From an uncultured Candidatus Saccharibacteria bacterium (lineage in GTDB: Bacteria > Patescibacteriota > Saccharimonadia > Saccharimonadales > Saccharimonadaceae): a stretch of 64,000 bases of DNA. This document shows, one piece after another, positions 21,081 through 45,235 of the stretch. A model generated the notes under the pieces. It was not told where the DNA came from. It saw only the letters and a list, made by a program, of their open reading frames with translations, and did no database searches. The DNA lies in the NCBI GenBank assembly GCA_964593465.1, contig CAZQJY010000001.1, positions 74,480 to 138,479 on the forward strand, written 5' to 3'. The position numbers were made by a program, and so were the translations under genes. Each line of letters starts with the position of its first letter. Within the stretch, counting starts at the first letter, position 1.

Positions 21081-21188
21081 ATGAATCCACTAGCTGACTT
21101 GGATTATTGTAGCATATCCACCCCTGATAGACAAACCTTATGTGTTTATAGTAAAATAGGGCTATCAACTAGCAGGAACTACAGCATC

Positions 21189-21605
21189 ATGAAACGAACT
21201 CTCCAATACATCGCAGTCGCCATAGCAACCAGTTTTTTGATTGGACTCAGTACACCAGCAGCTGCAGCGCAAATGCAAGGTGGCCTCCCTGGTGGCGCAG
21301 CGGCAGCTCGTGGTGACGGTCAGCCTGCGATACTGTTTGGAGATGGGGGTGTATTTGCCAAAATCACCAACATCATGCTGTTTATCGTAGGTGCGATCAG
21401 TGTCATCATGATTATCATCGGTGGTCTGCGCTACGTGCTCTCTGGCGGCGACTCTGCAAATGTGAGTGCAGCAAAAAACACCATTCTCTACGCCATAGTC
21501 GGTATTATCGTATCACTACTTGCGTATGCTGCAGTTAATTTTGTAACTGGTGCATTTGTCGACAACGGCGGCATGGGTGGTGGCGGTGGAGCAACAAGCT
21601 TCTAA
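21189..21605 (+). CDS. VirB2/TrbC-like (T4SS_pilin-type) pilin
   Basis: signal peptide, then ITNIMLFIVGAISVIMIIIGGLRY..GGD..AKNTILYAIVG; start ATG 21189. Confidence 0.85.
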   Translation: MKRTLQYIAVAIATSFLIGLSTPAAAAQMQGGLPGGAAAARGDGQPAILFGDGGVFAKITNIMLFIVGAISVIMIIIGGLRYVLSGGDSANVSAAKNTILYAIVGIIVSLLAYAAVNFVTGAFVDNGGMGGGGGATSF

Positions 21606-28605: not shown

Positions 28606-29433
28606 ATGGCAGTATATAAAGTACCCCAAGACATCGAAGCCGAAGACAAGCTCCTCGGGCCGTTTACATTTCGACAATTCATCTATCTCATCGTAGTGGC
28701 GATGTCTGGTGGGCTGGGCTATATACTCTGGCAGCTAGCTCCGCCACTCGCGCTCATCTCTGCGCCACCAATTATCGTATTTGGCACACTTGCGCTACCA
28801 CTCAAAAAAGACCAGCCTATGGAAACATACGTAGGCGCAATGGTATCGTTTTACTTCCTCAAGCCCCGCAAGCGTTTTTGGCAGCCAGACGGCATCGAAT
28901 CACTCGTAGAGATTACTGCACCAAAAAACGCACCACCAGATCGCGTGAAGCACATCACGCAAGACGAAGCACGCGACCAGCTTGACTACCTATCCGACAT
29001 CGTAGAGTCTCGCGGCTGGAGTGTGCGTGGTGTTGGTGTTCCCCTGTCTGGCATCTCTGACACCACTGCCATGCAGCAACAACAGCCCGCCACGAGCGAA
29101 TACGACTCAGACGACATGTTTAGCAAAGGTAGCGCCAGCGCCCAAAGGTTTAGCCAAATCCTCGATAGCAGTGGCGGTACAGCTCGCGGCAAGCTACTTA
29201 CACAGTTCCAAGAACAAGCAAGCGCAATGCCCGCAGCACCGCCAGAACCAGCTACAACACAAAATCCTACGCCAAGCACTAGCGTAAACAGTGTATCTAC
29301 TGGTATAATTGACCTTGCAAACGATAACGCGGGACTTTCAGTGTCTGCGATGGCGAAAATCGCCAATATCCAGACCGATACAAAAGACCACGGATTATCA
29401 GATGGTGATGAGGGCGAGTTATCGTTACATTAA
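28606..29433 (+). CDS. PrgI family (VirB3-like) membrane protein
   Basis: YKVPQDIEAEDKLLGPFTFRQF, two TM helices, DQPME..KPRKRFW. Confidence 0.85.
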   Translation: MAVYKVPQDIEAEDKLLGPFTFRQFIYLIVVAMSGGLGYILWQLAPPLALISAPPIIVFGTLALPLKKDQPMETYVGAMVSFYFLKPRKRFWQPDGIESLVEITAPKNAPPDRVKHITQDEARDQLDYLSDIVESRGWSVRGVGVPLSGISDTTAMQQQQPATSEYDSDDMFSKGSASAQRFSQILDSSGGTARGKLLTQFQEQASAMPAAPPEPATTQNPTPSTSVNSVSTGIIDLANDNAGLSVSAMAKIANIQTDTKDHGLSDGDEGELSLH

Positions 29434-29470: not shown

Positions 29471-30646
29471 GTGCAACCACAAAACCAGCAATATCCGCCG
29501 GCGGCAGATCCGTATGGCTATAATCCTGCAGCTCAGGGTGTACCCGCACAGCCTCCTATGGACCCGCAGCAGATGCAGCAGCCATATGTTGCCGCTCCTC
29601 AACCTGTGGCGGGAGTAGTAGACCCCTACACACAGCAACCCCCTATAGCACCAGCTTATCCGCCGGCGGCAGATCCGTATGGCTATAATCCTGCAGCTCA
29701 GGGTGTACCCGCACAGCCTCCTATGGACCCGCAGCAGATGCAGCAGCCATATGTTGCCGCTCCTCAACCTGTGGCGGGAGTAACGGATCCGTATGCCGGG
29801 CAACCCTCGGTAGCAATGCCGGAGCCAATCCCCACAGCCCCTACAACAAACCCAAATCTCATCCCCGACACAGCAGTGCAAGGTGCAACAGGTGCCAAAG
29901 AAGCGCCAAAAAAGGCACCTCAGCGCCCCAAAAACACCACCCAAAACACCTTACTCTTCTCGGAAATCCGTGACAATATGGTAGTTATGGCAGATGGCAG
30001 TTTTCGTGCGGTGATTGCCTGCGAATCCATCAACTTCGACCTAATGAGCGCGCGCGAACGCGAGGGTGTCGAGTTTAGTTACCAAAACTTCATCAATTCA
30101 CTCACACACCCAGTCCAAATCCTCATTCGTTCGCAAAAAGTTGACATCGGCCCCTACCTAGACCGCCTGACAAAAATCCGTAAGTCACAAGACAACATGC
30201 TCCTTGGGGTACTCATGGACGACTACATAGATTTTGTGGACATCCTAGCAGAGGAAGCCAACATCATGGACAAAAGCTTCTACGTAGTGATTCCGTATTC
30301 ACCAACAGGCGACCTAAGTAACATCAAAGACAAGGGCAAGGGATTTTTGGCTGGACTATTTGGTAGCACTACCAACCAAGCCATCACCAAGATCGACAAA
30401 ATCACTTACGAAAAAGCTAAGGATGAAATGAAACACCGCATCGACTCAGTCACAAGCGGGCTTTTCGCTATGGGTGTACACTGCGCGCAACTCAATACCA
30501 AGCAGCTCGGTGAACTTTACTATAGCTATTACAATCCAGACATCGCCATCCGCGAGCCTCTGGGTAACTTCGAATCCAACACCTTTACCTATGTACGCAA
30601 AGGCGAGGGCGAAGCACAAAGACCAAACATAGGAGGAAAAATATAA
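29471..30646 (+). CDS. T4SS VirB4 N-terminal-like partner (TcpE/TraC-type) with Pro/Gln-rich repeat N-terminus
   Basis: TQNTL..SEIRDN, NFDLMS.RE.E..Y..F.NSL..PVQI.IRS, FYVVIPY; upstream of the VirB4 ATPase. Confidence 0.72.
   Translation: MQPQNQQYPPAADPYGYNPAAQGVPAQPPMDPQQMQQPYVAAPQPVAGVVDPYTQQPPIAPAYPPAADPYGYNPAAQGVPAQPPMDPQQMQQPYVAAPQPVAGVTDPYAGQPSVAMPEPIPTAPTTNPNLIPDTAVQGATGAKEAPKKAPQRPKNTTQNTLLFSEIRDNMVVMADGSFRAVIACESINFDLMSAREREGVEFSYQNFINSLTHPVQILIRSQKVDIGPYLDRLTKIRKSQDNMLLGVLMDDYIDFVDILAEEANIMDKSFYVVIPYSPTGDLSNIKDKGKGFLAGLFGSTTNQAITKIDKITYEKAKDEMKHRIDSVTSGLFAMGVHCAQLNTKQLGELYYSYYNPDIAIREPLGNFESNTFTYVRKGEGEAQRPNIGGKI
29492..29782 (+). repeat. 126-bp perfect direct repeat (29492-29617 and 29657-29782; period 165 bp)
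   Basis: identical nucleotide copies encoding YPPAADPYGYNPAAQGVPAQPPMDPQQMQQPYVAAPQPVAGV. Confidence 0.92.
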
Positions 30647-32481
30647 TGGCCAAAAAGCAAGACGCTGTCGATATTGCTGCGCAGCAGCGTGCACGTGAAC
30701 AGGCCGAGGTGGAACAGGCATTCCTCAAGGGTGTCAATACACTTCGTGACCTGATTGCTCCTAGTAGCCTAGAATTCCACGCCGATCATTTCCGCCTAGG
30801 TACCAAGTATGGCCGCACGCTCTACATCTACGGCTATCCACGCCAGCTCTACACTGGCTGGCTTAGTAGTATTATCAACATGGACGAAGTGCTCGACGTA
30901 AGTATGTTCCTCTACCCAGTGGACACGCAAGTAGTGATGAACAACCTCAAGAAAAAGGTGACTCAGCTCGAAGCTAGCATGGCTATTAATCAAGAAAAAG
31001 GCAAGACACGTGACCCAGGCCTTGAAGCTGCGCTGCAAGATGCAGAGGAACTGCGAGACGAGTTGCAGGTGGGTAGCGAGAAATTCTTCCGCTACGGCCT
31101 CTATATTACGCTATACTCCGACAACCTAGAGGATATGACGTTTGTTCAAAACAAGGTAGAAACATTGTTTGGCCAGCAGCTCGTATTTAGCAAAGTAGCA
31201 AGCAGCCAGCAGGAACAAGGGCTCAATAGTACCGTGCCACACCTGATGGATCAGTTGCAGATTCGCCGCAACATGAACACAGGTGCTATCTCGACGTCGT
31301 TCCCATTTACCAGCGCCGACCTGACGCAAGAGCAGGGTATCCTCTATGGTATAAACATGCACAACAACGGTCTGGTAATCTTTGACCGCTTTACACTAGA
31401 AAATGCCAACATGGTGGTGTTTGCAAAGTCTGGTGCTGGTAAATCATTTACCGTCAAACTCGAGGCAGTTCGCTCGATGATGGTGGGCGCAGATGTACTT
31501 ATTATCGACCCAGAAAACGAGTACCAGAAGCTTAGCGATGCCGTGGGCGGCAGCTACATTCGTCTGAGCCTCAACTCTGACGTGCGCATCAATCCGTTTG
31601 ACCTACCAAAGGTAATCGACACAGAAGATAGCGACGACGCGCTACGCGCCAACCTTGTAACACTCCACGGCTTGCTCCGTCTCATGCTTGGCGGTGCTAC
31701 AGCTACAAACACCAACGTGACACTTAGCCCAGAGCAAGAAGCCGACCTAGACCAGGCACTTATCGACACCTATGCACGTATCGGTATCACTAGCGATCCA
31801 CTCACACACACCAGCCCTCCACCAACTATGAGTGACCTCTATGATACATTACTCCATATGGGTGGCACCGGGCCACAGCTAGCGCAACGCCTACGCAAGT
31901 TTACGAGCGGTACGTTTGCGGGTATATTCTCACAGCAGAGCAACGTAGACATCAACAACTCTATGGTCGTCTTCAATATTCGCGACCTAGAGGACGAGCT
32001 ACGGCCAATTGCCATGTATATCGTACTCAGCCACATCTGGAACATTACTCGCTCACAGCGCAGGAAGCGTATGCTCATTGTGGATGAGGCATGGCAACTC
32101 ATGAAATACGAAGACTCAGCAAACTTCCTCTTTAGCCTCGCCAAGCGAGCTCGTAAATATTACCTGGGGATCACCACAATCACACAGGATGTCGAAGACT
32201 TTATGAGTAGCAAAATGGGCCGCGCTATCGTAGCCAACAGCTCTATGCAGCTACTACTCAAACAATCCGCTAGTGCAGTAGATGTACTCGGCGATGTATT
32301 TAAACTCACAGAAGAAGAGCGCAAGCGCCTCGGCAGCTTCCCGGTAGGGCAGGGGCTTTTCTTTGCGGGGCAAAATCACGTACATATACAGGTGATAGCT
32401 AGCCAGACAGAGACGCAACTCGTCACGACAAATCCGCTCGAAGCAGTTAAGCAGGAAAAACAGCAAGAACAGCAAGGGTAA
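30646..32481 (+). CDS. VirB4-like T4SS ATPase
   Basis: AKSGAGKS Walker A, IIDPENEY, INPFDL, IVDEAWQLM Walker B, KRARKY, TQDVEDF. Confidence 0.92.
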   Translation: MAKKQDAVDIAAQQRAREQAEVEQAFLKGVNTLRDLIAPSSLEFHADHFRLGTKYGRTLYIYGYPRQLYTGWLSSIINMDEVLDVSMFLYPVDTQVVMNNLKKKVTQLEASMAINQEKGKTRDPGLEAALQDAEELRDELQVGSEKFFRYGLYITLYSDNLEDMTFVQNKVETLFGQQLVFSKVASSQQEQGLNSTVPHLMDQLQIRRNMNTGAISTSFPFTSADLTQEQGILYGINMHNNGLVIFDRFTLENANMVVFAKSGAGKSFTVKLEAVRSMMVGADVLIIDPENEYQKLSDAVGGSYIRLSLNSDVRINPFDLPKVIDTEDSDDALRANLVTLHGLLRLMLGGATATNTNVTLSPEQEADLDQALIDTYARIGITSDPLTHTSPPPTMSDLYDTLLHMGGTGPQLAQRLRKFTSGTFAGIFSQQSNVDINNSMVVFNIRDLEDELRPIAMYIVLSHIWNITRSQRRKRMLIVDEAWQLMKYEDSANFLFSLAKRARKYYLGITTITQDVEDFMSSKMGRAIVANSSMQLLLKQSASAVDVLGDVFKLTEEERKRLGSFPVGQGLFFAGQNHVHIQVIASQTETQLVTTNPLEAVKQEKQQEQQG

Positions 32482-32484
32482 TAC

Positions 32485-35400
32485 ATGTCTACTGCGCTCG
32501 ACGATGACAAGCTAAACCCTGCCAATACCTCCACTTGGGATGACGAAAGAGGTGCGCCAGCAATTAAAAGCGCCCGTGATGGAGAGCAGGCTAATTTTGA
32601 TCGTGAGCTCGACGGTATAACAAATGACTCCAATATATCCGACCTAAAAAATGCCGAAGGTAGCGGGGGCAACAAATCTGCAACTGACGGCAATATCGAG
32701 AAGAAAAAGGAAGAAGACGAAGAAGAGTCTGGTTTCAAAAAACGCCTCAAAAAATCTGGACCACTAATCGGTGTTGGTGGTATCATCGCAGCATTCATGG
32801 GTACTGCGAGCTTTTTTGGATTGCCTGCCGCACTACTTGTTACATTCGAGGGTGTTCTCACTAACGCAAACTCACACGATACGCGCGCTAATACAGTATT
32901 GATGCGTGGTCGCATGGGTGCAATGTTTAATAATATGCTTGGTACGGGCCGCGACTGCTCTGCCAGCAAAATCAAATGTAAAGTCGCAACCATGGGTAAT
33001 CGAGAGTTGAAGCGACTAAAGGCAATCGACGGCGTAGAGGTCGAGACCAATAAGTCCAAGAAAAACCCTTTTCGTAACAAAGTAAGAAAGATGTCTATAC
33101 CTCTAAGCGATGGCACGAAGGTAGAAGTGAAAAACGCCGCTGAGTTTAATCAGCTTATGCGTGATAACCCTGATTTTAGGCGAACAATGTTTCGTGTCCA
33201 GCATCCTATAGCCTCTGCATTTATAGGGGTTGGTAAAAATGGATGGTCAAAATTTAAAGACAAGATTCTCAAAAAATACAATATCAATATGGGAGATAAG
33301 TTTAAGGCATCCAAAAAAAAGGACCCTGAAGAGCGTGATAAAGAAAATAAAAAGAATATGAATGAAAAGACAGGTGCAGATACTGACAAGGATAAGAATT
33401 CGAGGATAGATAAGTATAAGAAGAAACTCAAAACCTCACAGCTTGGCAAAGCAGCCGACAAAGCCAAAGGTGGTATTAGAAAAGCTGCCATCAAATCTGG
33501 TGCTGGTGGTATAGCAGCGGGAGTTTCTTTGGCAACAATGCCAGTAGAATTAGCCTGTATGTCGTACAATATCATACGTGCATCGGTTGCTACAATCAAA
33601 GTAGCCTACATGAAAGATCTTGTGTCCTTTGCATATCCTTTTTTTCGCATAGCTAGCCAGTTACGCAATCAGGGAGATGTAGACCCTACCGAAGCAGAAT
33701 ATGTAGGTAAGAGAGTAGGTCTACAAGTAACCAAGTCTAGTGATAGCTCGATAGTTGGCAAAAATGCTACTGATTCTCAAGGTTTTCAGGCAGCCTTAAA
33801 CGGAGATGCCAGTAAACTAAAGGATCACACCAAGAAGCTTATGCCATGGTATATGGTTGGAGGAGTAAAGGGATCTGAGCTAATTAAAGGCGTACAAGAA
33901 ACCTTAGGTGGCAAAAAAAATATACGCAATATGTGTATAGCCGCAACTATAGCAGGGTTTGCAACAGGCGCAATTAGTGGAGTCGCCGCACTCGCGCAAT
34001 GCGCAACTATAGTTGGGTGTATTGCTCCGATTGCCGGAATGATACTAGGTTTTGTTGGTGGAGCGGTACTTGCAGATATTGTCGTAGACCAAGCTATAGA
34101 GGCTCTCACTAGCGAATCAGCTCAACGAATAGTCGAGGCGGGACTTGATGCCGATCTTGTAGGACCACCCCTAGGAGATGCTCTTGCCGGAGCAATGGCT
34201 ATCATGGGGACAGAAAAAGATCGCGCTTCTGGCCTTCGACCAGCAACAAGTACAAACGAAGTACTCGTCTACAACAAGACAACCGAGTCATATTACCAAG
34301 ACTACCTTGCTTTCGAGAAAGACGAGGCCGGAGAGACACCACTCAATCCATATAGAGAATTTTCGTTTGCAAATCAATTTATAAAAAGTATGTATCCTGA
34401 CGGGGTAAAAACAGATTCAATAGGAGGGATGCTTGGCAATCTCACGACAATCGCCATGACCCCAATGAAGCTCTTGGGCGGATCGGCCGCTTCTGCGGCG
34501 GCACGCAGTAGCGGATACTATATGCCAAATCCAATCACAGACGATATTGATAATCTTAAAAATGCTATTTCGCGTTGCGAAGATGTTCAGATGGAAGAAG
34601 TTGGATTTATATGCGATATGCACGGACGACCAGTGAGCGTCATAGACCCTAGGGTGCTAGGTTGTGCAGACAAGATGGCCAAGGGTGAAGATTTGATTGA
34701 TGTCGATGACGAAGGCACAAAGATGACAAAATGCTTCAGTGACATGATTGATTATATGACAGATAATGATTATATCGATGAGGAAGGCAAACCCACTAAA
34801 TTCGATACCTATAGCGACTGTGGGGGCGAGGAGGAGAAGAAGTGCGAGACAGACTACCTCTACTTCAAGGCATACTGCACAGAAGATAGGGTATACCCAT
34901 GGGGCACATCCGTCAGAGAGATAGATAGTGATATGATGAGCCCCAGCGCCACTAAGGCAAATAGCTGGAGAGATGGCGTACTATGCTCGGGCAAGAACGA
35001 AGCGGGAGAGGAAGATAGAGCATGGGCAAACAAAATCTATAACTTCTCATTCTACTACAACTTCTGCGAGTCACAGCTATCATTGCCAGAAAGTACAGAT
35101 GGATGCTGGGAAGACGAAGAAGCTGGGGGTAGCGGAAATGAAGCAAACACAAGCTCTGCTGAGAAAAATACTGGAGACTGGGAAGCGCCTGCAACTGGTA
35201 CGTGCGATGCGGCGTCCGGTGGATTCGGCTCCAGAGGTGGTGCGCACAAAGGTATCGATATATCAGCACCGTCAGGAACACCGCTTCTCGCGCCCACAAG
35301 TATGAAAATAATTTTTGTAGGAGTAAGTAGCGACGGTAGTACAGGTAACCAGGTCACCGCAACAGCAACCGACGGCTCAGATTATAGCTTTAGATTTATG

Positions 35401-35607
35401 CATATGCTCGAGAAAGGCCCGATGCAAGAAGGGCAAGAGGTGTCAAAGGGTACAGAGATTGGTAAAATAGGCAGCACAGGCGACTCTACCGGACCACACC
35501 TACACCTTGATGTATTCCCACCGAACGTTGATCCTATGTCATACGGCGGACAAGTTGATCCGATAAAAATATTCCAAGAACACGGAGTTACAATACCATG
35601 TCCATAA
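32485..35607 (+). CDS. giant membrane-anchored M23 peptidase (cassette 1)
   Basis: N-terminal TM, Gly/Ala hydrophobic stretches, C-terminal HKGIDI..HM..STGPHLH. Confidence 0.82.
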   Translation: MSTALDDDKLNPANTSTWDDERGAPAIKSARDGEQANFDRELDGITNDSNISDLKNAEGSGGNKSATDGNIEKKKEEDEEESGFKKRLKKSGPLIGVGGIIAAFMGTASFFGLPAALLVTFEGVLTNANSHDTRANTVLMRGRMGAMFNNMLGTGRDCSASKIKCKVATMGNRELKRLKAIDGVEVETNKSKKNPFRNKVRKMSIPLSDGTKVEVKNAAEFNQLMRDNPDFRRTMFRVQHPIASAFIGVGKNGWSKFKDKILKKYNINMGDKFKASKKKDPEERDKENKKNMNEKTGADTDKDKNSRIDKYKKKLKTSQLGKAADKAKGGIRKAAIKSGAGGIAAGVSLATMPVELACMSYNIIRASVATIKVAYMKDLVSFAYPFFRIASQLRNQGDVDPTEAEYVGKRVGLQVTKSSDSSIVGKNATDSQGFQAALNGDASKLKDHTKKLMPWYMVGGVKGSELIKGVQETLGGKKNIRNMCIAATIAGFATGAISGVAALAQCATIVGCIAPIAGMILGFVGGAVLADIVVDQAIEALTSESAQRIVEAGLDADLVGPPLGDALAGAMAIMGTEKDRASGLRPATSTNEVLVYNKTTESYYQDYLAFEKDEAGETPLNPYREFSFANQFIKSMYPDGVKTDSIGGMLGNLTTIAMTPMKLLGGSAASAAARSSGYYMPNPITDDIDNLKNAISRCEDVQMEEVGFICDMHGRPVSVIDPRVLGCADKMAKGEDLIDVDDEGTKMTKCFSDMIDYMTDNDYIDEEGKPTKFDTYSDCGGEEEKKCETDYLYFKAYCTEDRVYPWGTSVREIDSDMMSPSATKANSWRDGVLCSGKNEAGEEDRAWANKIYNFSFYYNFCESQLSLPESTDGCWEDEEAGGSGNEANTSSAEKNTGDWEAPATGTCDAASGGFGSRGGAHKGIDISAPSGTPLLAPTSMKIIFVGVSSDGSTGNQVTATATDGSDYSFRFMHMLEKGPMQEGQEVSKGTEIGKIGSTGDSTGPHLHLDVFPPNVDPMSYGGQVDPIKIFQEHGVTIPCP

Positions 35608-38144
35608 TGCGATTTATTCGATCGATAATACTTTTTTCTATGGCCACTACCATCGCCTTTACTTCTGTAACAGGGGCTACAGAGTACGGCTTCAGGGCAT
35701 CAAATGGAGTACTATACTATGATGAAGATGATAGGTGTGGCCCTAGCGGAGATAACTCCTCCAGCTCATCAGATGACGCGGATCTATCTAATGTATATAT
35801 CGTGGGAGACTCTATCACTGTAGGAGGATTGCGCTATGGTGATTATGTTGAAAAATTAAAATCTGCTGGTGCAAAAGAGGTACGGATTGTAGGGTCTAGC
35901 GGTGGTCGATTAGATGCGCCAGGTAGTGATGGGTGGATGGTTGAAACCGATGGTACACCCAAGCCACGTCCTGATAAACCCGGATTTGACTACATGCAAG
36001 AAGATAAAGATTTTATCAAAGACGCGACCACTGTCGTGATCGCACATGGCACCAATGGCATGCCGGGCGGCGCCAATGATATCCAAAAAGCTATCGATAT
36101 CATCAAGAACGACGCGGAGTCAAAAGCTAAAATATACTGGGTAGACATAGCTATTACTAATGGATCAGGATCAGGAACTCCAGGCACTGGTCCAGGAACA
36201 TACCATGACATATCCAGAAATCTCAATAAAGTTATTCACGACAATACCAGCAAGGGCTACTCTGTCATCTCATGGGCAAAGGCTGTCGATAGTGACTTTG
36301 ACCCGAATAAAAGCGAGCCTGCAAAAGACGCAAACAATATGCTTGGCGACGGTATTCACCCTGCCGACTACAATAAATATACAGATGTAATAGTAGACCA
36401 GCTCAAGGGCTCCGGGAACACCAATACGCCTTCAGATAACTCAGCCACCCCAGTAGCAACCGGCGAAGAGAACAGAGTTGTCATGACTAATGGCTTCACG
36501 GCAGGTAAAAACGGCCGTAAACGAATTATCGTGCACTGGACTGGCGCAAATTCGCTAGACAAAGCTCTAGAGTATAGAAGAAATACTGGAGACGGGTATC
36601 ATATACTCATAGATAAAGACGGCAAAGAAACCCGCACAGCAGAAGATGAACAAATAGCCTGGGGTGCGGCCGACTCAAACAAGGACAGCCTACATGTCTC
36701 AATGGTATCTGACGGATCCGAGAAGTTCGATCCAGAGTCTCCTCAAGTACGAGCACTCTCTGCACGTATTGGCAAATGGGCAAAACAGTACGACATACCC
36801 CTTAAGAAGATAAGTGGACCCGGTGTACTAGACAGTGGAGATGAAAAAGGTGTGCTTGGCCATCTAGATGTTCAAAATGCATCACCAGGTTCATACCCAA
36901 ACAAAGACCATCCAGATCCAGGAGAAGATTTTCCATGGGATGAAGTACTAAAAAACGCCGGCGGTGATACATCGGCGAGTGATGTTAGTGATGTATGTTG
37001 TGCTTCTGGCGGAAACACAGGCGGGTCAATAATTAACGCTAGTGTCGGAGGAGGAGGTGGCTGCGGTGTGGACAAAGATGGCGATCAAGGTAATAAGGAG
37101 CAGATCTGGTCATTTCTAATCAATAAGTTCGAAGGTGAAGGCTATAATCGAGATGAAGCCGAAAAAGCAGCCTCTGGAGTTATGGGGAATATGTGGCAAG
37201 AGACAGGTGGTAGTTTTAACCCTCATATTGACCACGGTATGGGTTGTAATAGCGGACCCGCAATAGGACTGAATCAGTGGTGTTTTGAGCGACAAACTAA
37301 TCTAAAAAACTTTGGCGAAGAAAAGGGTAATGGCTGGCAATGTCTGGGCACTCAATTAGAGTTTTTATGGGGTGAAATGACAACAACCCATAAGCATTTG
37401 TTCGAAGTTATGAAGGGTAAGCCTCCACGTGAAGCTGCCGAGATTTTCGACCATGGCGGGGATGGAGCGAGCCAGGGTATTGCAGGATTTGAAGAATCTT
37501 GGGATAGCCAAAAGGGAATGCATGTGCGCGCTGGATTTGCTGATGAAATTTACAAAGAGTTTACAGGTAAAGATCCTTCCACCCTCAGTAGCAATAGTAG
37601 TGCAAATTGCACCAACAAGAGCAGTACCGGTGCGCCAAACGGAAGCATCGCCGAAGTAGCAGAAGAGATGGCAAGCTGGGCCAAAGAGGCCGGAGGTACC
37701 TGCTACGCAAGTGAGGGTCACGGGACCCCTACCGAAGATATTAAACGAAGAGTAGAGAACCATTTTAGAGGGGTAGAAAACGGCGTCGACTGCTCCAGTT
37801 TTGTGCGAGCCGTCATGGTAACTGCTACAGGTAAAGATCCAGGGGAGAATGGGGCAAGGTCAAATACAACAACAGGAATCTGCAACTCACCATGGTACAA
37901 AGAAATATCTGAAAATGAAGCTGGCCCTGGCGATGTAATAGTAACCGGCGCAGGATGCAGCTCTCATGCAGCTGTCATCATCAAGGATGAGGGGAACGGA
38001 GTATTTACAACTGCCGACTCCCAAAGCCCTGGCTGCGGCCCAGATGGTTTTGGTCCTAATGTAGTTGAGGGTAGCCCGGGAAGCTGGAATAATGGTCAGC
38101 ACCCTAGAAAAATATTTAGGTTTGTCGAAAACACTCAAGTTTAA
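35598..38144 (+). CDS. secreted multi-domain cell-wall hydrolase: SGNH + amidase_2 + phage-tail-lysozyme-like + NlpC/P60 (cassette 1)
   Basis: signal peptide; GDSIT..HGTN..DGIHP; IIVHWT..YH.LID..LGHLDV..HPDPG; GVMGNMWQET..GLNQW; GVDCSSFV..PGD..H. Confidence 0.82.
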   Translation: MSIMRFIRSIILFSMATTIAFTSVTGATEYGFRASNGVLYYDEDDRCGPSGDNSSSSSDDADLSNVYIVGDSITVGGLRYGDYVEKLKSAGAKEVRIVGSSGGRLDAPGSDGWMVETDGTPKPRPDKPGFDYMQEDKDFIKDATTVVIAHGTNGMPGGANDIQKAIDIIKNDAESKAKIYWVDIAITNGSGSGTPGTGPGTYHDISRNLNKVIHDNTSKGYSVISWAKAVDSDFDPNKSEPAKDANNMLGDGIHPADYNKYTDVIVDQLKGSGNTNTPSDNSATPVATGEENRVVMTNGFTAGKNGRKRIIVHWTGANSLDKALEYRRNTGDGYHILIDKDGKETRTAEDEQIAWGAADSNKDSLHVSMVSDGSEKFDPESPQVRALSARIGKWAKQYDIPLKKISGPGVLDSGDEKGVLGHLDVQNASPGSYPNKDHPDPGEDFPWDEVLKNAGGDTSASDVSDVCCASGGNTGGSIINASVGGGGGCGVDKDGDQGNKEQIWSFLINKFEGEGYNRDEAEKAASGVMGNMWQETGGSFNPHIDHGMGCNSGPAIGLNQWCFERQTNLKNFGEEKGNGWQCLGTQLEFLWGEMTTTHKHLFEVMKGKPPREAAEIFDHGGDGASQGIAGFEESWDSQKGMHVRAGFADEIYKEFTGKDPSTLSSNSSANCTNKSSTGAPNGSIAEVAEEMASWAKEAGGTCYASEGHGTPTEDIKRRVENHFRGVENGVDCSSFVRAVMVTATGKDPGENGARSNTTTGICNSPWYKEISENEAGPGDVIVTGAGCSSHAAVIIKDEGNGVFTTADSQSPGCGPDGFGPNVVEGSPGSWNNGQHPRKIFRFVENTQV

Positions 38145-38160
38145 TAAGAGGAGATTCTCA

Positions 38161-38550
38161 GTGGATATAGAGTACATACAAAGTTGGATATATAGGTATC
38201 GTTTCTTATTAATCATCATTTTTGTCGTAATCATAGCGGGCTTAGTGGGCGTTACCTCAATGCAAAACTACCGTGATACACATATAGCAAAAGAAACGAT
38301 AAATAAAGTCGTTGATCCTGCAGAATTTGAAATAAAAAAAGTACTTCTGTCGAATGAAGGCTGGAAGTACGTACAGATTGCATATACACAAGGAGAACTC
38401 AAAGGCACGACCGCCGTAGCAATACTCCACGACGAAGCAGATAGAACAGTTCTTAAGGTTGGGCCCGGAACTAGTTTATCAAAAAGTGTTATGAAAAACG
38501 CAGGTGTACCAAATAATATCCAAGCGGAAATACTAAGAATATCCCTATAG
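38161..38550 (+). CDS. small single-TM accessory protein (cassette 1)
   Basis: SD GAGGAG then GTG 38161; N-terminal TM; ends in GPGT..GVP..I. Confidence 0.7.
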   Translation: MDIEYIQSWIYRYRFLLIIIFVVIIAGLVGVTSMQNYRDTHIAKETINKVVDPAEFEIKKVLLSNEGWKYVQIAYTQGELKGTTAVAILHDEADRTVLKVGPGTSLSKSVMKNAGVPNNIQAEILRISL

Positions 38551-38568
38551 TTCGCGAGAAAATTTATT

Positions 38569-40101
38569 ATGAATCGTAATCCACTAGATCCACTCAAAAA
38601 AATAATAATCTACACCACAGTAATAGGTGCCATTACCTTAAGTCTGTTATTTTTTATCATCAATTATACGTTTGCCTATATAGCCGTCGAGAAACCAGAC
38701 GGTATACGTGATACGCGCATATCACTGTACTACAACTCCTACCAGAAAGAGATTGGAAAACCAGGTCTCCATATAGTCAAAAGGGGGGCTGATGAAATAT
38801 CCGTCTGGTCTGGTGATAATATACATACATCGTCACCTTTTAAAACTCCTTGGTATGGATTCTCCTATAAAAAGATTAAAATTCAGTATGATAAGAATGC
38901 CGATAAAGCCGCGTATCAATCCATGCTTGATGATGCATGTGGTACGTACAGTAAAAATCTAGCCACCTTGTTGCAATATAAGTGTACAGCACCGAGGGCA
39001 TTAACTCGGTTCAATACGCCTGACCGCGGAGAGTGGACAACGAATAGCATATATTCTGAAATTTATTTTGCAAACATGTCACCAAAGCCTTATATAGGGG
39101 GGTTATTGGGCGTGGACTACGACCTACACCACCCGCCCAGCATAGTCGCTATTCGCGATAACGGCAGCACAAGAAAATTCAATCCACCAGAAGGATATAG
39201 GCAGGATACATTCTCATCCGCAAAGATCTTTACCGATACGCACACTACGGAAAATAATCGCTTTGTAATTGTAGAGTCAGACGGAACAATATATTTAGCC
39301 ACACCTACATCCGATGATTTGTCGGCTATAGAATATAAAAAGATTGAGACACCAAAAGATTACGATATAAACAACTCTCAAACAATATGCGACATCAAAA
39401 AAACTATTGTTGCATGTTACACAGGGCAGACGAGCACGCCAAAAGGAGCGGTAAGCTCTAAGCCAACGAGGTCATATATAACAATAATGAATTTCGAGAA
39501 TAATGATCGACGTGAAATCAAACTACAGGATAATTTAATTTTACAGAATTTCGTTATTACAACAGACAGTAGGATGTTTGGTAGTAATCGTGGTGAGTTA
39601 CTATACTTCAAACAAGATAGAAGTGGGGACAAAGCTTTAGGTATTAAAATGTCTAAAGAAATCTCGGCAATCTCGGCTGATGACGATATATACTTCATTA
39701 AAAACAATGGCATCTACAAGGCAAGCACTACCACCTTTGAGTCGTATCGAGTGTTCTATTCTCCAAGTATACAGCCGGTAAAACTTATGACAGTCGATAA
39801 AAAGGTGTTTACCATCGGTAAATCAACATTTATTAAAAACTATACCTATGCATGGCAACTCAATAACCAAGATAATACTACTAATTCTCCCCGAGCTATT
39901 GACCTACTTCCATCTGTACCAGAATCCTCAACATATGGCACAACTGACCTTTCAGAAGATAAGTTATACATAGTAACACCTCTCACTCGTTCATCAAGTA
40001 ATAAAGATACTGAAAGAATAAAGCGTAACACTCTCGACTATCTTAAGCTTATTGGAGTTAATACCGACGAATTTACTATCGTATATCCATACGACAAGTA
40101 G
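38569..40101 (+). CDS. single-TM extracellular accessory protein, probably beta-rich (cassette 1)
   Basis: 510 aa; N-terminal TM; AT-rich; C-terminal ..LDYLKLIGVNTDEFTIVY. Confidence 0.75.
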   Translation: MNRNPLDPLKKIIIYTTVIGAITLSLLFFIINYTFAYIAVEKPDGIRDTRISLYYNSYQKEIGKPGLHIVKRGADEISVWSGDNIHTSSPFKTPWYGFSYKKIKIQYDKNADKAAYQSMLDDACGTYSKNLATLLQYKCTAPRALTRFNTPDRGEWTTNSIYSEIYFANMSPKPYIGGLLGVDYDLHHPPSIVAIRDNGSTRKFNPPEGYRQDTFSSAKIFTDTHTTENNRFVIVESDGTIYLATPTSDDLSAIEYKKIETPKDYDINNSQTICDIKKTIVACYTGQTSTPKGAVSSKPTRSYITIMNFENNDRREIKLQDNLILQNFVITTDSRMFGSNRGELLYFKQDRSGDKALGIKMSKEISAISADDDIYFIKNNGIYKASTTTFESYRVFYSPSIQPVKLMTVDKKVFTIGKSTFIKNYTYAWQLNNQDNTTNSPRAIDLLPSVPESSTYGTTDLSEDKLYIVTPLTRSSSNKDTERIKRNTLDYLKLIGVNTDEFTIVYPYDK

Positions 40102-40148
40102 CAGTACTTCAATACAGACAATTACTTCTAGCAATTCCATTATATATA

Positions 40149-40177
40149 TTGCATAATAAGCAATTTTACGCTATACT
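40149..40177 (+). promoter_or_regulatory. internal sigma70-type promoter before cassette 2
   Basis: TTGCAT, 17 nt, TATACT. Confidence 0.5.
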
Positions 40178-40249
40178 CTATCTGTAACTACGTAATCTCG
40201 TGTGCCATAGTGTGGGAGCTTACGAGAGATGGGAAACTACCACTGCTCG

Positions 40250-43165
40250 ATGTCGACAAATTTAGACGACAATCCAGATAAATACGCACCTCGCTACGAC
40301 GGTGAGTATTTACGTAAGAGTGAGCAGCAGCCAGACACCCATACAACAGACGAGCAGCAGCGCCTAGATCCCCCTCAGACACACACAAATCCATCACCGC
40401 GAAGCCGCAAGCAATTGCTACAAAAAGCTTTTAGCAACATACGTGGCACGCGTTCCGCATCACCTATACTCCTCATTGCAATACTACTATTTGGTGGCGG
40501 TAGTATATTCACTGCTATATTAGCACCAGGTGCGACACTTTTGCATCTAGCCGATACACTCGAGCGTGACCTCAACAGTCAGCTCTCTGCAATGGACAAG
40601 ACCTCTATGCAGCTATGGCGCACGAAGCTCAAGCAAACAACCTCAGGCTCGTGCGGGGCAGTGAAGCTAAAATGTCGCTTTGCCACAGTCAATGAAGAAA
40701 AATTCAGCAAAGCCGTACAACGCGCAAATGGCGGACGCACAGACGTGCTCCGTGTTCACTACGACGAAACAAAAAAAGGAGTGCTTCCTGGCAGATCAGC
40801 CATAAAATCTTTTGAGTATATCGACGACAAAGGCGTCTCGCACTCACTTGATTCAGCTGAAAAGTTTACTAGCTTTATGAAAGAAAATACCGGATTTCGC
40901 TCGATGATGTACGGTGTGTATAGTCCGCGCTTTTCACCGTTTAAAAACAAAGCTACGATGAAGTTCTTGAACAAAAACAAAACCAGCTGGGCAAAAAAGC
41001 TTGTTGGCAAAAACGAAAAGGAAGTTGACGCCAGTGCCAAGCGAGCTATAAAAGGCACAACCACACTAGCAGTAACAAAACTTACACCCGTAACAGACGA
41101 AGACGGCAACCAGACGGGGGAATACGAAGACGAGAAGGGTAATAAATACAGCGCCGACGAAGCCAAGGGCTTACTCGAACAAGAAGAGCGGATCAAAAAA
41201 AGCCCGACAACACAAAAGGTACTTGGTAACATGGCAAAGGGTGTACTGATCACAGGTCTTGCCGACACAGCCTGCACCATCTATAACACCTCGCGTGCAG
41301 TAAGTGTCAGCGCCAAAACTATTCGTGCCGCCGAATTGGTACGCACAGGTAATATCTACGCTATAAACGAACCTCATGCTATCAAAGCCGAGATGGCCAC
41401 GCCAGAAACGGTACAATACGCCTCAAACAACATCATGGCCATGGAACCGCGCACAAAAGTAGCCGACGAATCCCAGCTTGCCAGTACACCGGCTGGTCAA
41501 AAGCTTGCTGAAATAGATAATCCTAGTGGTGGCCAGACCGGTATGGATTCTCCTATATACAAAATATCGAGCAGCCAAGACTACCCAGAAAAGCTTGATG
41601 CCGAGACACAAGCACTGCTACCTGGCGGTGGACTCACGGGCACACTTGATAGTGTTAATACTGACATCGCAAACGCACTTGGATCTAACGATCCCGCTAC
41701 ACTATCCGAACGCTGCAAGATAATCCAAAACCCAGTTGTGCGTGGTGGCTCGCTCATTATCGGTATTGCAGCGGGTGTTGGTAGTTTTGGTACAAGTACG
41801 GCTTTTTCCGTAGCAGGTAGTGCGGCACTTGGGCTCGCCCTACCATACCTGACAGCACAGCTTGCTGATATGGTCGCAGGTAATGTCACCGAGGGACTCA
41901 AGGGTAAGAATCTTGTAAGCGCTGTATCTGTGGGGGCATCGCTTACCTACAACGGTATTGCACGCAGCCAAGGCATGATGACGATGAGCCCCGAAAATAT
42001 GGCTGATTATCAAAACGGTAAACGTGAGTCACTTGTAGCATATGACGAGATAGACAAGATGGCAGCACGCAAAAACCCTTTTGATGTGACAAATCAATTC
42101 TCATTTACCGGCTCGCTAGTACGCAGCAGTCTGCCAATCGCAGCAACAATTCGCAGCAATGGCGCAGGCTTAATTCAATCTCTCCCACAAATAGCATCAG
42201 TTGCAGCCAAAGCAATACTGCCGATAGCTGGCGCCGCAAGCGAACGAGATACACTCGTCCGTGCAGAGAGGTATAAGATGTGCGACGATGTGGACTACAA
42301 GGCACTTGGCGACGATGTAGCTGTTGATATAACTTGTGTGATGAACTTTGGCCTGCCACAAGAAGCAATGTCACTAGAAATAGATGAGGCGACAGATTAT
42401 ATGATTGCCAATGGCGAGGTGGATGCTAATGATATATCTGGCGATCCTGTTGACAATGGCAACACCTGGAATTACGCCAAATACTTAGAGCAGTGTCGCG
42501 ACAGTCAACCAGGTGCTGTCGAAGATATAGAGTCCGAACCAACCAACGGTGCCGGTTGCACTGATGAGAAAAATTTTGAGAAAAATTATCACTATGCGAA
42601 GTTTGAGGTGATTCGAAATTCTGATGACGGTATAAGCCAAGAGCTTCCCGGCATGGACAGTGGCGCACAACAAGAGTTTACTGATGGCTCTGCAGGTGAA
42701 ATTGGACTCGACGGCTGGGCATATCCAACCGACAAAAACAAGACAGAGGTATCGAGTAATTTTGGTCCTCGTGACGGAAAACAACACAATGGTGCTGATC
42801 TTACAGGGCCTCTTGGTACACCTATTTATGCCGCGAGAGACGGCGAGGTGATTGCTGCGGGACCCGCTAGCGGCTTTGGTAACTGGATTGTCCTTCAGCA
42901 CGACGTCAACGGCAAGCGTGTCGACACCGTCTACGGCCATATGCAGCGCAGCGGCGTGCTGGTGCGCGTAGGGCAACGAGTAAAAGCTGGCGAGATGATT
43001 GGCCGCATTGGCAATGAAGGCCAAAGCACCGGACCACACCTTCATTTTGAAGTATGGGATGGCGGGCGTAGCGATATGGAAGGTGGGTCTGGCGGCAAGG
43101 CAGTCGATCCGGCATCGTTTCTCGAAAAAGCATCAAGTAGCAACAGTAATGCGAGGGATGTTTAA
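40250..43165 (+). CDS. giant membrane-anchored M23 peptidase (cassette 2)
   Basis: start MSTNLDD (ATG 40250) mirrors MSTALDD of the paralog; HNGADL..YGHM..STGPHLHFEV. Confidence 0.85.
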   Translation: MSTNLDDNPDKYAPRYDGEYLRKSEQQPDTHTTDEQQRLDPPQTHTNPSPRSRKQLLQKAFSNIRGTRSASPILLIAILLFGGGSIFTAILAPGATLLHLADTLERDLNSQLSAMDKTSMQLWRTKLKQTTSGSCGAVKLKCRFATVNEEKFSKAVQRANGGRTDVLRVHYDETKKGVLPGRSAIKSFEYIDDKGVSHSLDSAEKFTSFMKENTGFRSMMYGVYSPRFSPFKNKATMKFLNKNKTSWAKKLVGKNEKEVDASAKRAIKGTTTLAVTKLTPVTDEDGNQTGEYEDEKGNKYSADEAKGLLEQEERIKKSPTTQKVLGNMAKGVLITGLADTACTIYNTSRAVSVSAKTIRAAELVRTGNIYAINEPHAIKAEMATPETVQYASNNIMAMEPRTKVADESQLASTPAGQKLAEIDNPSGGQTGMDSPIYKISSSQDYPEKLDAETQALLPGGGLTGTLDSVNTDIANALGSNDPATLSERCKIIQNPVVRGGSLIIGIAAGVGSFGTSTAFSVAGSAALGLALPYLTAQLADMVAGNVTEGLKGKNLVSAVSVGASLTYNGIARSQGMMTMSPENMADYQNGKRESLVAYDEIDKMAARKNPFDVTNQFSFTGSLVRSSLPIAATIRSNGAGLIQSLPQIASVAAKAILPIAGAASERDTLVRAERYKMCDDVDYKALGDDVAVDITCVMNFGLPQEAMSLEIDEATDYMIANGEVDANDISGDPVDNGNTWNYAKYLEQCRDSQPGAVEDIESEPTNGAGCTDEKNFEKNYHYAKFEVIRNSDDGISQELPGMDSGAQQEFTDGSAGEIGLDGWAYPTDKNKTEVSSNFGPRDGKQHNGADLTGPLGTPIYAARDGEVIAAGPASGFGNWIVLQHDVNGKRVDTVYGHMQRSGVLVRVGQRVKAGEMIGRIGNEGQSTGPHLHFEVWDGGRSDMEGGSGGKAVDPASFLEKASSSNSNARDV

Positions 43166-45235
43166 ATGAAAAAGCTTCGTATTATCTCGCTGCTATTTGC
43201 TGCTATCCTAATCACGCAAGAAGTGATTTTTCCTATCGACGTAATGGCGATATCCGACCCAAATAGGTTAATACGTCAAGATGCGTGGGGTATTGATGAC
43301 GAATGCGGCGTACCAACAAGCACCAGTGAATCTACCGATAACCTGCAGGAGGTAGTGAACGAAATTGTAGACGACGCAAAAAATAAAGGTGTCAATGCAT
43401 CCATAAAAATAAGTGGTGATCAATCCGCCTCTGCCGGATCATCAAGTCAGATGCCATCTGCGTCTATTATAAAACTCTTGGTTGCTGTAGCACTGATGAA
43501 AAAAGATATACCCCTCAATGACGTACGCACAGACCTAGAAACTATGATTCGAGACTCTGATAATGCGGCCGCCAATAGACTTATCAATGCCGCTGGCGGG
43601 TTTGATGCTATCAATACAGCAGCTCGTGAACTAAACATAGAGAATGATATTCATATCGGACGAAAAATGCTCGAAACACCCACAGGTTCCGACCCAAACA
43701 CTATCTCATCTACAGGCTCCGATATACTACTTGGCGCTATCAAAAAGTCTGCTGATAGCAGTGATCCTGTGAGTAAAGAGTACGCAACTGCTATCATCTC
43801 TGCTATGAAGAGCCAAACTGTAAACACGAAATGGGGCTCTTCTGGTATTCCTAGGCAACATATCGCCCATAAAACAGGTGAACTTGGTGGTGCGCAGCAT
43901 GATGTGGGATATTTTCTCAAAGATGATAGGTGGCTAGCCGTAACAATCCTCACGAACGAGCCTAATAGTAATGGCTCTCAGGGTATAGAGGTGGTGAAAA
44001 ATGCAGCCAAAAAAATCTGGGACGCATGGGAAAAAGGAGGTGAGATAGGCGACGACAATCAAGAGTCTGAAACTGTAGGCTCTCAAGACGAGCTAACTAC
44101 TAGTAGCTCATGCTGTCTCGACCCAAGCGCCAGCCGCGTTGCTCTAGCCGGCAATAACAATGTCGAAAAAATACTCAACTTCTATATGCGTAAAGGCCTC
44201 AACCTTGCCCAAGCAAGCGGTATCGTTGGTAATATGATGCAAGAGTCTGGCCTCAAACCAAATATCGTACAGGGTGGACGACTTATAGCACCAGGCGAAA
44301 ACTATCGCATGCAAAACGGTGTAGGGTTTGGGCTGATTCAATGGACATTCACTGGCAGACAAAAACCACTCCAGGATCATGTCGATAAAATGGGTGTTAA
44401 GAATACCGACCTCAGTGGGCAATTGAGTTTTACATGGGTAGAATTAACCGGGCCGTATCTTTCAACGTTGAATAATCTCCGGCGTACCAACGATCCTATA
44501 CAGGCGGCTGTTGTTGTACACGATGGCTACGAAAAATCTGCTGACTCTGCAGGGCAGGTGCGAAGTGTGCGTGGTGGTAATGCAAAGAAAATTTTCGACC
44601 AATACAAAAACGCGCCGGCATTAGCTGGAAGCTCCGCTGCAAGCGCCATGAATAATCCGTCGGGATTAGAAGAAGTTGACGCACATGGGCAAGCTGACAC
44701 AGAAACAGCAGCTAGTGTGGACGAAAGTGGTGAATCCACAGGAGGCTGCGGCAGTGCAGCTGGCGGCAACTTCATAGATACTCTCAAAGCCTACGCTTGG
44801 CCAACATGGAAAGGTCTAGACACTAAACCCACCAACTCTTACGCAGGAGCTGTATCAAGAGCTTTGAGTGGAGGATTTTATGTTGGCGGCATCAGGTATA
44901 GAGGGATTGACTGTGGTGGATTTGTTACACTTCTAGTACGTGATAGTGGTTATGACAAGGGCTATAACTTCGATGGCAAAGGAGGCCCCACAAGCTCTCA
45001 GGAACAATGGATGCGCTCAAACTGGCAATCACTCGGGTCGAGCTCTAGTATTAACGCTGGTACGTTGCAACCTGGCGACGTTGCAATTAATTCAACTCAC
45101 ACGTTTATATACGTTGGAGATGTTCCAGGGTTTGGATCTAAAATAGCGTCCGCCTCACTCGATGAACGTGCACCAATGGCCGATACGCAACAGAGTCCAA
45201 CTCAACCGGGTTATAATTGGTACAGGAAAAAATAA
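43166..45235 (+). CDS. secreted multi-domain hydrolase: class A beta-lactamase-like serine peptidase + phage-tail-lysozyme-like + NlpC/P60 (cassette 2)
   Basis: signal peptide; SIIK, SDN, HKTG; GIVGNMMQESG..GLIQWT; GIDCGGFV..PGD..H. Confidence 0.85.
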   Translation: MKKLRIISLLFAAILITQEVIFPIDVMAISDPNRLIRQDAWGIDDECGVPTSTSESTDNLQEVVNEIVDDAKNKGVNASIKISGDQSASAGSSSQMPSASIIKLLVAVALMKKDIPLNDVRTDLETMIRDSDNAAANRLINAAGGFDAINTAARELNIENDIHIGRKMLETPTGSDPNTISSTGSDILLGAIKKSADSSDPVSKEYATAIISAMKSQTVNTKWGSSGIPRQHIAHKTGELGGAQHDVGYFLKDDRWLAVTILTNEPNSNGSQGIEVVKNAAKKIWDAWEKGGEIGDDNQESETVGSQDELTTSSSCCLDPSASRVALAGNNNVEKILNFYMRKGLNLAQASGIVGNMMQESGLKPNIVQGGRLIAPGENYRMQNGVGFGLIQWTFTGRQKPLQDHVDKMGVKNTDLSGQLSFTWVELTGPYLSTLNNLRRTNDPIQAAVVVHDGYEKSADSAGQVRSVRGGNAKKIFDQYKNAPALAGSSAASAMNNPSGLEEVDAHGQADTETAASVDESGESTGGCGSAAGGNFIDTLKAYAWPTWKGLDTKPTNSYAGAVSRALSGGFYVGGIRYRGIDCGGFVTLLVRDSGYDKGYNFDGKGGPTSSQEQWMRSNWQSLGSSSSINAGTLQPGDVAINSTHTFIYVGDVPGFGSKIASASLDERAPMADTQQSPTQPGYNWYRKK

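Follow-up and report, generated by a model that had tools for sequence, protein, structure and literature searches.

How does an exported cell wall hydrolase keep its parts in order while whole catalytic domains are inserted into it and exchanged? The question is raised by two proteins, hydrolases A and B, that are encoded in a 64,000-nucleotide stretch of the genome of an uncultured Candidatus Saccharibacteria bacterium (contig CAZQJY010000001.1, positions 74,480 to 138,479; hereafter the window, numbered from its first letter). In the family to which both belong, a catalytic cassette lying ahead of the glycosidase is usually accompanied by a cysteine doublet just before the glycosidase, and we propose, with a probability of about 0.6, that the conserved cysteines form serial intramolecular disulfide loops, in which the cassette would be a closed loop and the N-terminal anchor would lie beside the core.

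In our reading, A and B are the pair of peptidoglycan hydrolases, exported by Sec, that belong to a Gram-positive-type type IV secretion system (T4SS) locus in a Saccharibacterium, each of them probably coupled in translation to a membrane protein of about 1000 residues that ends in an M23 peptidase. The first-pass annotation, made from the sequence alone, had given both proteins the same layout: signal, D(D/E)xC G, Ser/Thr linker, variable domain(s), xCC, lysozyme-like domain, linker cysteine and NlpC/P60. Pfam, the family hidden Markov models (HMMs) built here and the cysteine positions agree with that layout, the motif at Cys47 reading DD(R/E)CG, and Pfam, catalytic motifs and Foldseek agree with the contents it assigned to the slot, SGNH plus Amidase_2 in A and a beta-lactamase-like domain in B. 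The parts of hydrolase A are as follows.

35598..38144, + strand: hydrolase A, 848 residues (signal, N-motif Cys, SGNH, Amidase_2, CC, lysozyme, Cys, NlpC/P60)
35598..35681, + strand: signal peptide or membrane anchor, residues 1-28, a hydrophobic N-terminus by sequence
35682..35741, + strand: N-terminal family motif (N-motif) YGFRASNGVLYYDEDDRC-G, ending at Cys47; the motif is present in nearly all homologues
35781..36365, + strand: SGNH esterase cassette, residues 62-256, with GDS70-72, GTN151-153 and D251xxH254 intact
36483..36941, + strand: Amidase_2 (N-acetylmuramoyl-L-alanine amidase) cassette, residues 296-448, Pfam PF01510
36996..37001, + strand: Cys467-Cys468 doublet, which closes the slot and is followed by Cys489 (from cysteine positions)
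37071..37517, + strand: phi29-gp13-type lysozyme (PF18013), residues 492-640, catalytic Glu535
37608..37610, + strand: linker Cys671, six residues ahead of NlpC/P60 (from cysteine positions and a family HMM)
37626..38057, + strand: Cys-rich NlpC/P60-type endopeptidase, residues 677-820, Cys732/His790 (from a family HMM)

The corresponding parts of hydrolase B are these.

43166..45235, + strand: hydrolase B, 689 residues (signal, N-motif Cys, beta-lactamase-like domain, CC, lysozyme, Cys, NlpC/P60)
43166..43249, + strand: signal peptide, residues 1-28 (...VMA|ISD), from the sequence and an AlphaFold2 helix at 2-29
43250..43309, + strand: N-motif ISDPNRLIRQDAWGIDDEC-G, ending at Cys47, 70-79% conserved with orthologues
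43343..44032, + strand: cassette resembling PBP-A and class A beta-lactamases, residues 60-289, with S100xxK (S100IIK), S131DN and K236TG intact
44111..44116, + strand: Cys316-Cys317 doublet; Cys317 aligns with the single N-motif Cys of core-only relatives
44129..44608, + strand: phi29-gp13-type lysozyme (PF18013), residues 322-481, catalytic Glu360
44747..44749, + strand: linker Cys528, invariant in the family
44756..45232, + strand: NlpC/P60-type endopeptidase, residues 531-689, Cys583/His645 (from a family HMM)

Cysteines lie at positions 47, 467, 468, 489, 550, 562, 582, 671, 702, 732, 762, 787 and 813 of hydrolase A and at 47, 316, 317, 528 and 583 of hydrolase B. The catalytic residues are intact in both proteins (GDS, GTN, DxxH, E535 and C732/H790 in A; S100xxK, S131DN, K236TG, E360 and C583/H645 in B).

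The cysteine doublet and N-terminal cassettes

A database search with hydrolase B returned 120 relatives, nearly all of them Saccharibacterial, and few close relatives were found for hydrolase A; domain maps were drawn for 134 proteins and 75 further genomic loci. Roughly two in three relatives belong to a core-only type of ~410-450 residues, made up of a signal, the N-motif, the lysozyme, the linker cysteine and NlpC/P60. The common core is the phi29-gp13-type lysozyme (Lys2) joined to the NlpC/P60 peptidase, with the N-motif cysteine before it and a second invariant cysteine in the linker. When 48 core-only sequences were aligned (44-88% identity), C47, the linker C256 and the catalytic C315 were invariant and the surrounding linkers unconserved. 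The N-motif, with the consensus D..F[FY]S.N.I..YD..C, takes up ~20 residues after the signal peptide; it is common to nearly all homologues (P0007-P0111) and is N-terminal regardless of the domain behind it.

We define the doublet as CC or CxC just ahead of the glycosidase, and slot 1 as the interval between the N-motif cysteine and the glycosidase. Among the ~200 relatives tabulated, a doublet is present in 59 of the 67 proteins with an insert in slot 1 (absent in 8/67) and in none of those without one (0/139). The eight discordant proteins comprise five distant ones that are not members of the family, two that have CxxC or C-x14-C, and one true exception (P0115). Such exceptions aside, the doublet goes with a slot 1 insert regardless of the type of insert or of glycosidase. 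The earlier claim that the cysteine positions are conserved thus stands, both in their invariance among the 48 core-only sequences and in the coupling of the doublet to the N-terminal insert.

The position of the doublet relates it to the core. Its last cysteine lies ~5 residues before the start of the lysozyme HMM, which is the position of the single cysteine in core-only proteins, and in hydrolase B the segment 'C317-LDPSASRVA-LAG' aligns with 'C-QDPGVGSIV-LAG' of core-only relatives. The cassette therefore sits exactly at the ancestral cysteine, and its arrival between N-motif and lysozyme would have turned a single Cys into Cys...cassette...CysCys. In the tree of lysozyme domains, the filled slot 1 appears in several well-separated lineages. 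Phylogenetically independent pairs gave seven in agreement with the association, none opposed and two unchanged (sign test p ~0.016).

The same arrangement is found in a second phylum. Some 34 species of Kribbella (Actinomycetota) encode proteins with the order transmembrane segment, C, M23, C(x)C, Lys2, C, NlpC/P60 (L041-L080, e.g. L042:9440-11083), and these are 27-30% identical to the Saccharibacterial core. At the one Kribbella locus examined there is no T4SS and no M23 partner gene; the neighbours are an ABC transporter, an enolase superfamily member, an aminotransferase and a 2-oxoacid dehydrogenase. Because the Kribbella bracket lies outside a T4SS context, the bracket belongs to the protein family and not to the secretion system. 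The likeness between Kribbella and Saccharibacteria could reflect shared ancestry, or transfer between an epibiont and its host phylum. In the literature on this system we found no paper describing the doublet rule, which is not proof that none exists.

Two sites of module exchange

Across the domain maps, 30 architectures were counted. Slot 1 holds SGNH, beta-lactamase-like (Bla), Amidase_2, GH3, glucosaminidase or M23 domains, singly or two together, and tabulating homologues between the N-motif cysteine and the doublet did reveal different modules there, as the first-pass annotation had anticipated. Its further expectation that inserts are confined to this bracketed slot is not borne out. 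There is a second site, slot 2, in the stretch from the lysozyme to the linker cysteine, and it is filled with SGNH, Bla-like or Amidase_3 domains in at least 25 members, a number comparable to that for slot 1. In addition, the lysozyme is replaced by SLT (P0088, P0098) or glucosaminidase (P0106), and NlpC/P60 is replaced in some relatives by an M23, M15_4 or C39-like peptidase. Judged by the domain maps, no catalytic module is immune to replacement, and the bracketed slot is one of two. What survives of the idea of a shuffling slot between Cys47 and CC is that orthologues differ exactly there; the second slot and the swapped glycosidases and peptidases are what it left out.

One lineage with a Bla domain in slot 2 (P0051-53, P0060 and P0063) has the order lysozyme, CxC, Bla, Cys.

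Comparisons of individual proteins locate the exchanges. Between hydrolase B and its orthologue P0006, residues 1-48 are similar, as is the part from ~20 residues before CC to the end (77%), and the sequences between are unrelated. Even among orthologues of the same architecture, identity with B drops right after Cys47 and goes from <30% to >90% at CC. Hydrolase A resembles P0088 in the Cys-SGNH part (49% identity) and in the linker cysteine with NlpC/P60 (42%), whereas the middle is swapped, with Amidase_2 and Lys2 in A standing against Bla and SLT in P0088 around a conserved 'D.CCA..GGS' joint. At the syntenic loci L001/L002 of a related genome, the protein at A's position reads SGNH-Bla-CC-SLT-NlpC/P60 and the one at B's position SGNH-CC-Lys2-NlpC/P60. 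Identities are also incongruent between domains of the same protein: the identity of P0025 to P0060 is 83% for Bla but 29% for Lys2, that of B to P0002 is 92% for Lys2 but 59% for Bla, and the Bla domain of B is nearest to that of the paralogous-type P0088 (68%), compared with 57-60% for its orthologues.

With inserts that differ between orthologous loci and identities that disagree from domain to domain, the exchange of modules is real and recent. On this sequence evidence the cassettes are shown to have been swapped, evidently by recombination in the low-complexity linkers. GC content and GC at third codon positions (GC3), compared between cassettes and cores, gave no clear foreign signature.

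Disulfide pairing and competing explanations

Whether the conserved cysteines are paired is addressed by their number. The mature cysteine count is odd (3, 5, 7, 9, 11 or 13) in 106 of 108 members with NlpC/P60, and one of the two exceptions is explained by its signal peptide being truncated; counts are even in members with an M23 or M15 tail, which have no catalytic cysteine. An odd count therefore means one catalytic cysteine plus pairs. Over the genome as a whole, counts are even in 46 of 56 cysteine-containing proteins that look exported compared with 139 of 344 that look cytoplasmic (Fisher p 5e-9). Such an even-cysteine bias is a known signature of organisms that oxidise their exported proteins. 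The genome also encodes one VKOR and two DsbA-like genes (C2:98114-98503, C1:178026-178499 and C5:20361-20882). Together, parity, the even-cysteine bias and the oxidase genes make the predicted disulfides plausible.

In core-only proteins, the two cysteines would most likely form one intramolecular disulfide that joins the N-terminal end of the lysozyme to that of the peptidase. With a cassette present, as in hydrolase B, the likeliest arrangement would be two serial loops, one closed by Cys47-Cys316 and enclosing the cassette, the other closed by Cys317-Cys528 and enclosing the lysozyme. Hanging in a loop of its own, the cassette would leave the N-terminal anchor near the core whatever its size.

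Several observations weigh against this arrangement. P0115 and L082 have an N-terminal insert without a doublet, so that the bracket is usual but not obligatory, and most slot 2 inserts add no cysteine. The Lys2 tree behind the independent pairs may misrepresent the history of the N-terminal part, which recombines. Pairing of C47 with C528, together with a local C316-C317 bond, fits the parity equally well. AlphaFold2 models were made of hydrolase B (alignment of 57 sequences; mean predicted local distance difference test score (pLDDT) 84, predicted template modelling score (pTM) 0.44) and of a compact Kribbella homologue (53 sequences; pLDDT 86, pTM 0.45); the domains are confident in both, and pLDDT is <50 at all three cysteine-bearing linkers in both. 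The look at C-CC disulfides that the first-pass annotation had suggested thus yielded confident domains but no staple geometry, with the cysteine-bearing linkers below a pLDDT of 50 and a pTM of ~0.45. Finally, of 121 sampled genomes in the order, 44 lack VKOR, and the hydrolases of VKOR-less genomes keep their cysteines; the link to the VKOR oxidase is therefore not tight. In this survey, which covered VKOR alone among oxidases, the distribution neither supports nor refutes disulfides. The disulfide-stapled scaffold first proposed accordingly gains from parity, the even-cysteine bias and the oxidase genes, and loses by the poorly modelled linkers and the two members without a doublet.

In an alternative that satisfies parity equally well, the cassette arrives by recombination from another gene of the family, together with that donor's signal, N-motif and cysteine. 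The new N-motif cysteine would pair with the linker cysteine, and the leftover cysteine before the lysozyme would be neutralised by bonding locally to a neighbour, as CC or CxC; on this view the doublet is bookkeeping, with no staple around the insert. P0115 and L082 do indicate that the N-motif cysteine can serve without a pre-lysozyme cysteine, and the variable spacing of the doublet (CC, CxC, CxxC, C-x14-C) is as expected of a small local loop. Nevertheless, a single mutation would suffice to lose the leftover cysteine, yet doublets outnumber losses by ~59 to 2, and doublets are found again in independent lineages as well as in another phylum. Vicinal disulfides are moreover strained and rare, which counts against a local CC bond, and the slot 2 Bla lineage, with its CxC and an extra cysteine after the insert, looks like two serial loops. 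We consider this origin of the doublet unlikely. It is less probable still that the linker cysteines have an intermolecular or metal-binding role, whether as a cross-link to the M23 partner or the T4SS, as a four-cysteine zinc site, or as a redox switch on the catalytic cysteine. Such roles would suit the cysteine near the end of the 1040-residue M23 partner (...IPCP, two residues from its end), the position of the cysteines in linkers that AlphaFold2 leaves disordered, and the number four, which is typical of zinc sites. The 978-residue partner of B, however, has no C-terminal cysteine, core-only members have just two non-catalytic cysteines, Kribbella keeps the bracket in a housekeeping context without T4SS or M23 partner gene, and parity follows the catalytic cysteine in nearly all members, which points to pairing within the protein itself. 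That the cysteines are mere passengers of chance or plain shared ancestry, with no structural role, we regard as very improbable. Raw counts do overstate independence, many members being close relatives, but the association survives phylogenetically independent contrasts, the cysteines are invariant inside otherwise unconserved linkers, and the pattern is kept at 27-30% identity across phyla.

Domains, locus and known systems

The domain assignments differ in strength. In hydrolase A, Amidase_2 (Pfam match 308-442) scores 56.2 bits against a cut-off of 26, and Phage_lysozyme2 (PF18013; 499-620) 71.7 bits against 28.2. The SGNH domain (Lipase_GDSL_2, PF13472; residues 69-255) has 22.2 bits, below the cut-off of 32.9, and the same cassette passes that cut-off in relatives (37.8 bits in P0066 and 34.5 bits in P0123); GDS, GTN and DxxH are invariant across 12 SGNH cassettes. 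A profile search of the PDB found no close solved relative of this cassette family, and its best matches of SGNH type, which were weak, were to the C-terminal domain of OatA (6wn9/6vjp, E 0.02-0.06). The match to an O-acetyltransferase domain hints that the SGNH cassette may act on peptidoglycan O-acetyl groups, and it is offered as a lead rather than as evidence. The NlpC/P60 match of A (PF00877; 728-800) has 18.4 bits and falls short of the cut-off of 23, and searches of the PDB with this region gave weak matches only; the domain shares 42-48% identity with its NlpC counterparts in P0088/P0122.

In hydrolase B, Phage_lysozyme2 (332-480) scores 100.9 bits against 28.2, and Beta-lactamase2 (PF13354; 123-263) 72.5 bits against 22. 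Glu535 of A and Glu360 of B lie within GNMxQE(S/T)G, and the Glu is invariant in alignments of the B type. The NlpC/P60 domain of B has no Pfam match at E 0.01 and was detected solely by the family HMMs; across 57 sequences its D-C-G and H-T are invariant. The relative P0112 reaches 42 bits for NlpC/P60 on its own domain, one that the family HMMs failed to match. In sequence and in fold, the B cassette is best matched by PBP-A (PDB 2j7v) and class A beta-lactamases, with a Foldseek TM-score to target of 0.72-0.78. Beta-lactamases filled the list when the B model was compared with the PDB by Foldseek, which made the search uninformative on the other domains and on their arrangement. Because the cassette scores 48.9 where the NCBIfam beta-lactamase equivalog cut-off is 200, it does not count as a bona fide beta-lactamase. 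PBP-A itself combines the class A fold with DD-peptidase function. The B cassette shares SxxK, SDN, KTG and fold with Thermosynechococcus PBP-A and class A beta-lactamases, from which it differs in identity (18-22%) and in being a cassette inside a multi-domain hydrolase. Its likeness to PBP-A suggests that it would cut or trim peptide stems.

When the core profile of 48 sequences was compared with the PDB, only phi29 gp13 was matched (3csr, E 1e-10) and no T4SS hydrolase structure. The label 'CwlT homologue' was dropped on this result, and the analogy with CwlT was kept. A genome-wide search for the N-motif returned hydrolase A alone, B having a diverged form, and the motif was accordingly rejected as a general secretion tag in this genome. 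Since it is disordered in the AlphaFold2 models, the N-motif may be a docking site for a partner, for instance the M23 protein. In some relatives (P0107, P0110/P0111, L013, L015, L018, L020 and L022) a C-terminal region of ~150-200 residues with 7-9 cysteines replaces NlpC/P60. None of our HMMs recognised this region, and Pfam, run on P0110 only, found nothing. These relatives are the first hydrolase of the locus in other genomes.

The genome that carries the window comprises ~0.93 Mb on 22 contigs, and proteins of the window match records of 'Candidatus Saccharibacteria' and 'Candidatus Mycosynbacter amalyticus' in database searches. The hydrolase region adjoins recF, dnaN and dnaA. Downstream of a VirB4-like gene are two pairs, each an M23-tailed membrane protein followed by a hydrolase (A in one pair, B in the other); the features around the hydrolases are listed here.

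21081-21605: T4SS_pilin gene, upstream of the hydrolase pairs
28606-29433: PrgI (VirB3-like) gene, upstream of the hydrolase pairs
30646-32481: VirB4-like ATPase gene, upstream of the hydrolase pairs
32485..35607, + strand: 1040-residue membrane protein with a C-terminal M23 domain (Pfam Peptidase_M23 920-1011)
40229..43165, + strand: 978-residue membrane protein, a paralogue of the 1040-residue one, with a C-terminal M23 domain (Pfam M23 852-947)

The stop of the 1040-residue gene overlaps the start of hydrolase A by 10 nucleotides (junction ATGTCCATAA), and the ATG of hydrolase B follows the stop of the 978-residue gene immediately (TAAATG). The C-terminus of the 1040-residue protein (window 35590-35607) reads ...HGVTIPCP, and its 978-residue paralogue lacks a C-terminal cysteine. 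The span 35598-45235 contains three further genes, that for the 978-residue M23 protein and two open reading frames of 161 and 510 residues. The latter two (window 38065-40101) lie between the two M23-hydrolase pairs, at a GC content of 0.38-0.39 that is below that of the flanking genes; their products have no Pfam or NCBIfam match, and counterparts of 127 and 528 residues sit in their place at L001/L002. The T4SS-cluster synteny around the hydrolases is also present at these two loci.

A and B have two of the traits by which T4SS-associated, VirB1-like hydrolases are recognised: they are encoded inside a T4SS cluster near virB4, and each combines PF18013 and an NlpC/P60-type domain on one polypeptide with a hydrophobic N-terminus. 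The proposed role of VirB1-like hydrolases is a local opening of the wall that serves the secretion machine (PMC12102498). Saccharibacteria live on Actinobacteria and need the T4SS cluster, including its wall hydrolases, for growth (PMC10633639, PMC12102498). In Candidatus Southlakia epibionticum ML1 this cluster is SEML1_0006-0019 (Wang et al. 2023, PMC10633639), and homologues of the peptidase and the lysozyme, encoded downstream of virB4, are reported to be essential to epibiotic growth (PMC12102498). The ML1 system resembles A and B in phylum, locus position and the pairing of M23 with a lysozyme-type hydrolase, a likeness by description only; the papers on it (PMC12102498, PMC10633639) do not describe module mosaicism, two insertion sites or the doublet rule.

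PrgK (pCF10), TraG (pIP501) and CwlT (ICEBs1) are likewise encoded in T4SS clusters near virB4, bear a signal or membrane anchor at the N-terminus, and pair a glycosidase with a cysteine peptidase (CHAP or NlpC/P60), sometimes with LytM/M23. Their glycosidase is SLT or the CwlT muramidase, in contrast to the phi29-gp13 type (PF18013) of A and B, which further differ in having two paralogues per locus, extra cassettes, a family-specific N-motif and the cysteine bracket. The relation is one of architecture and context, with no homology detectable in the PDB profile search. Phi29 gp13, a tail-associated lysozyme with LytM/M23 (PDB 3csq/3csr), is the sole solved relative of the lysozyme domain, and its Lys2-M23 order is shared by P0108/P0109; unlike A and B, it is a phage tail protein without signal peptide, N-motif or NlpC/P60. 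The LysA endolysins of mycobacteriophages are multi-catalytic wall hydrolases directed at Actinobacteria, with many domain types that recombination has shuffled into dozens of organisations (Payne and Hatfull 2012, PMC3314691). They differ from the present family in being cytoplasmic phage proteins that holins release and in having other cassettes, and they are not known to have an export signal or disulfide bracket.

What was known, then, is that T4SS-associated hydrolases are modular; what is added is the cysteine bracket, which its occurrence among homologues indicates to be real, recurrent and cross-phylum. The hydrolases and their M23 partners would join the cutting of glycan to that of stem peptides, and the cassettes would add de-O-acetylating, amidase and DD-peptidase-like activities. 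The locus amounts to a natural experiment, in which close genomes keep the locus and the core and exchange esterase, amidase, DD-peptidase-like and glycosidase cassettes, and the rule by which one Cys becomes Cys...CysCys marks the sites of N-terminal cassettes. If the disulfide loops are real, they would account for the tolerance of a tethered enzyme to inserts of 200-550 residues and would provide a template for engineering lysins with several activities; if they are not, the invariant linker cysteines still mark something functionally important.

All of this may bear on how Saccharibacteria breach or remodel the wall of their hosts. We raise, tentatively and as a somewhat doubtful extension, a general building rule in which each module is closed by a disulfide and the loops are joined by CC or CxC, a rule that would be older than the split between Saccharibacteria and Kribbella or would have crossed between phyla, and that would underlie a putative matching to host walls. 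Were it true, any wall-active cassette could be inserted at the N-terminal cysteine with the placement of the anchored N-terminus relative to the core unchanged, and a nicked linker would not release a module. The rule would then be the structural basis of a fast turnover of cassettes that fits these epibionts to the wall chemistry of their hosts.

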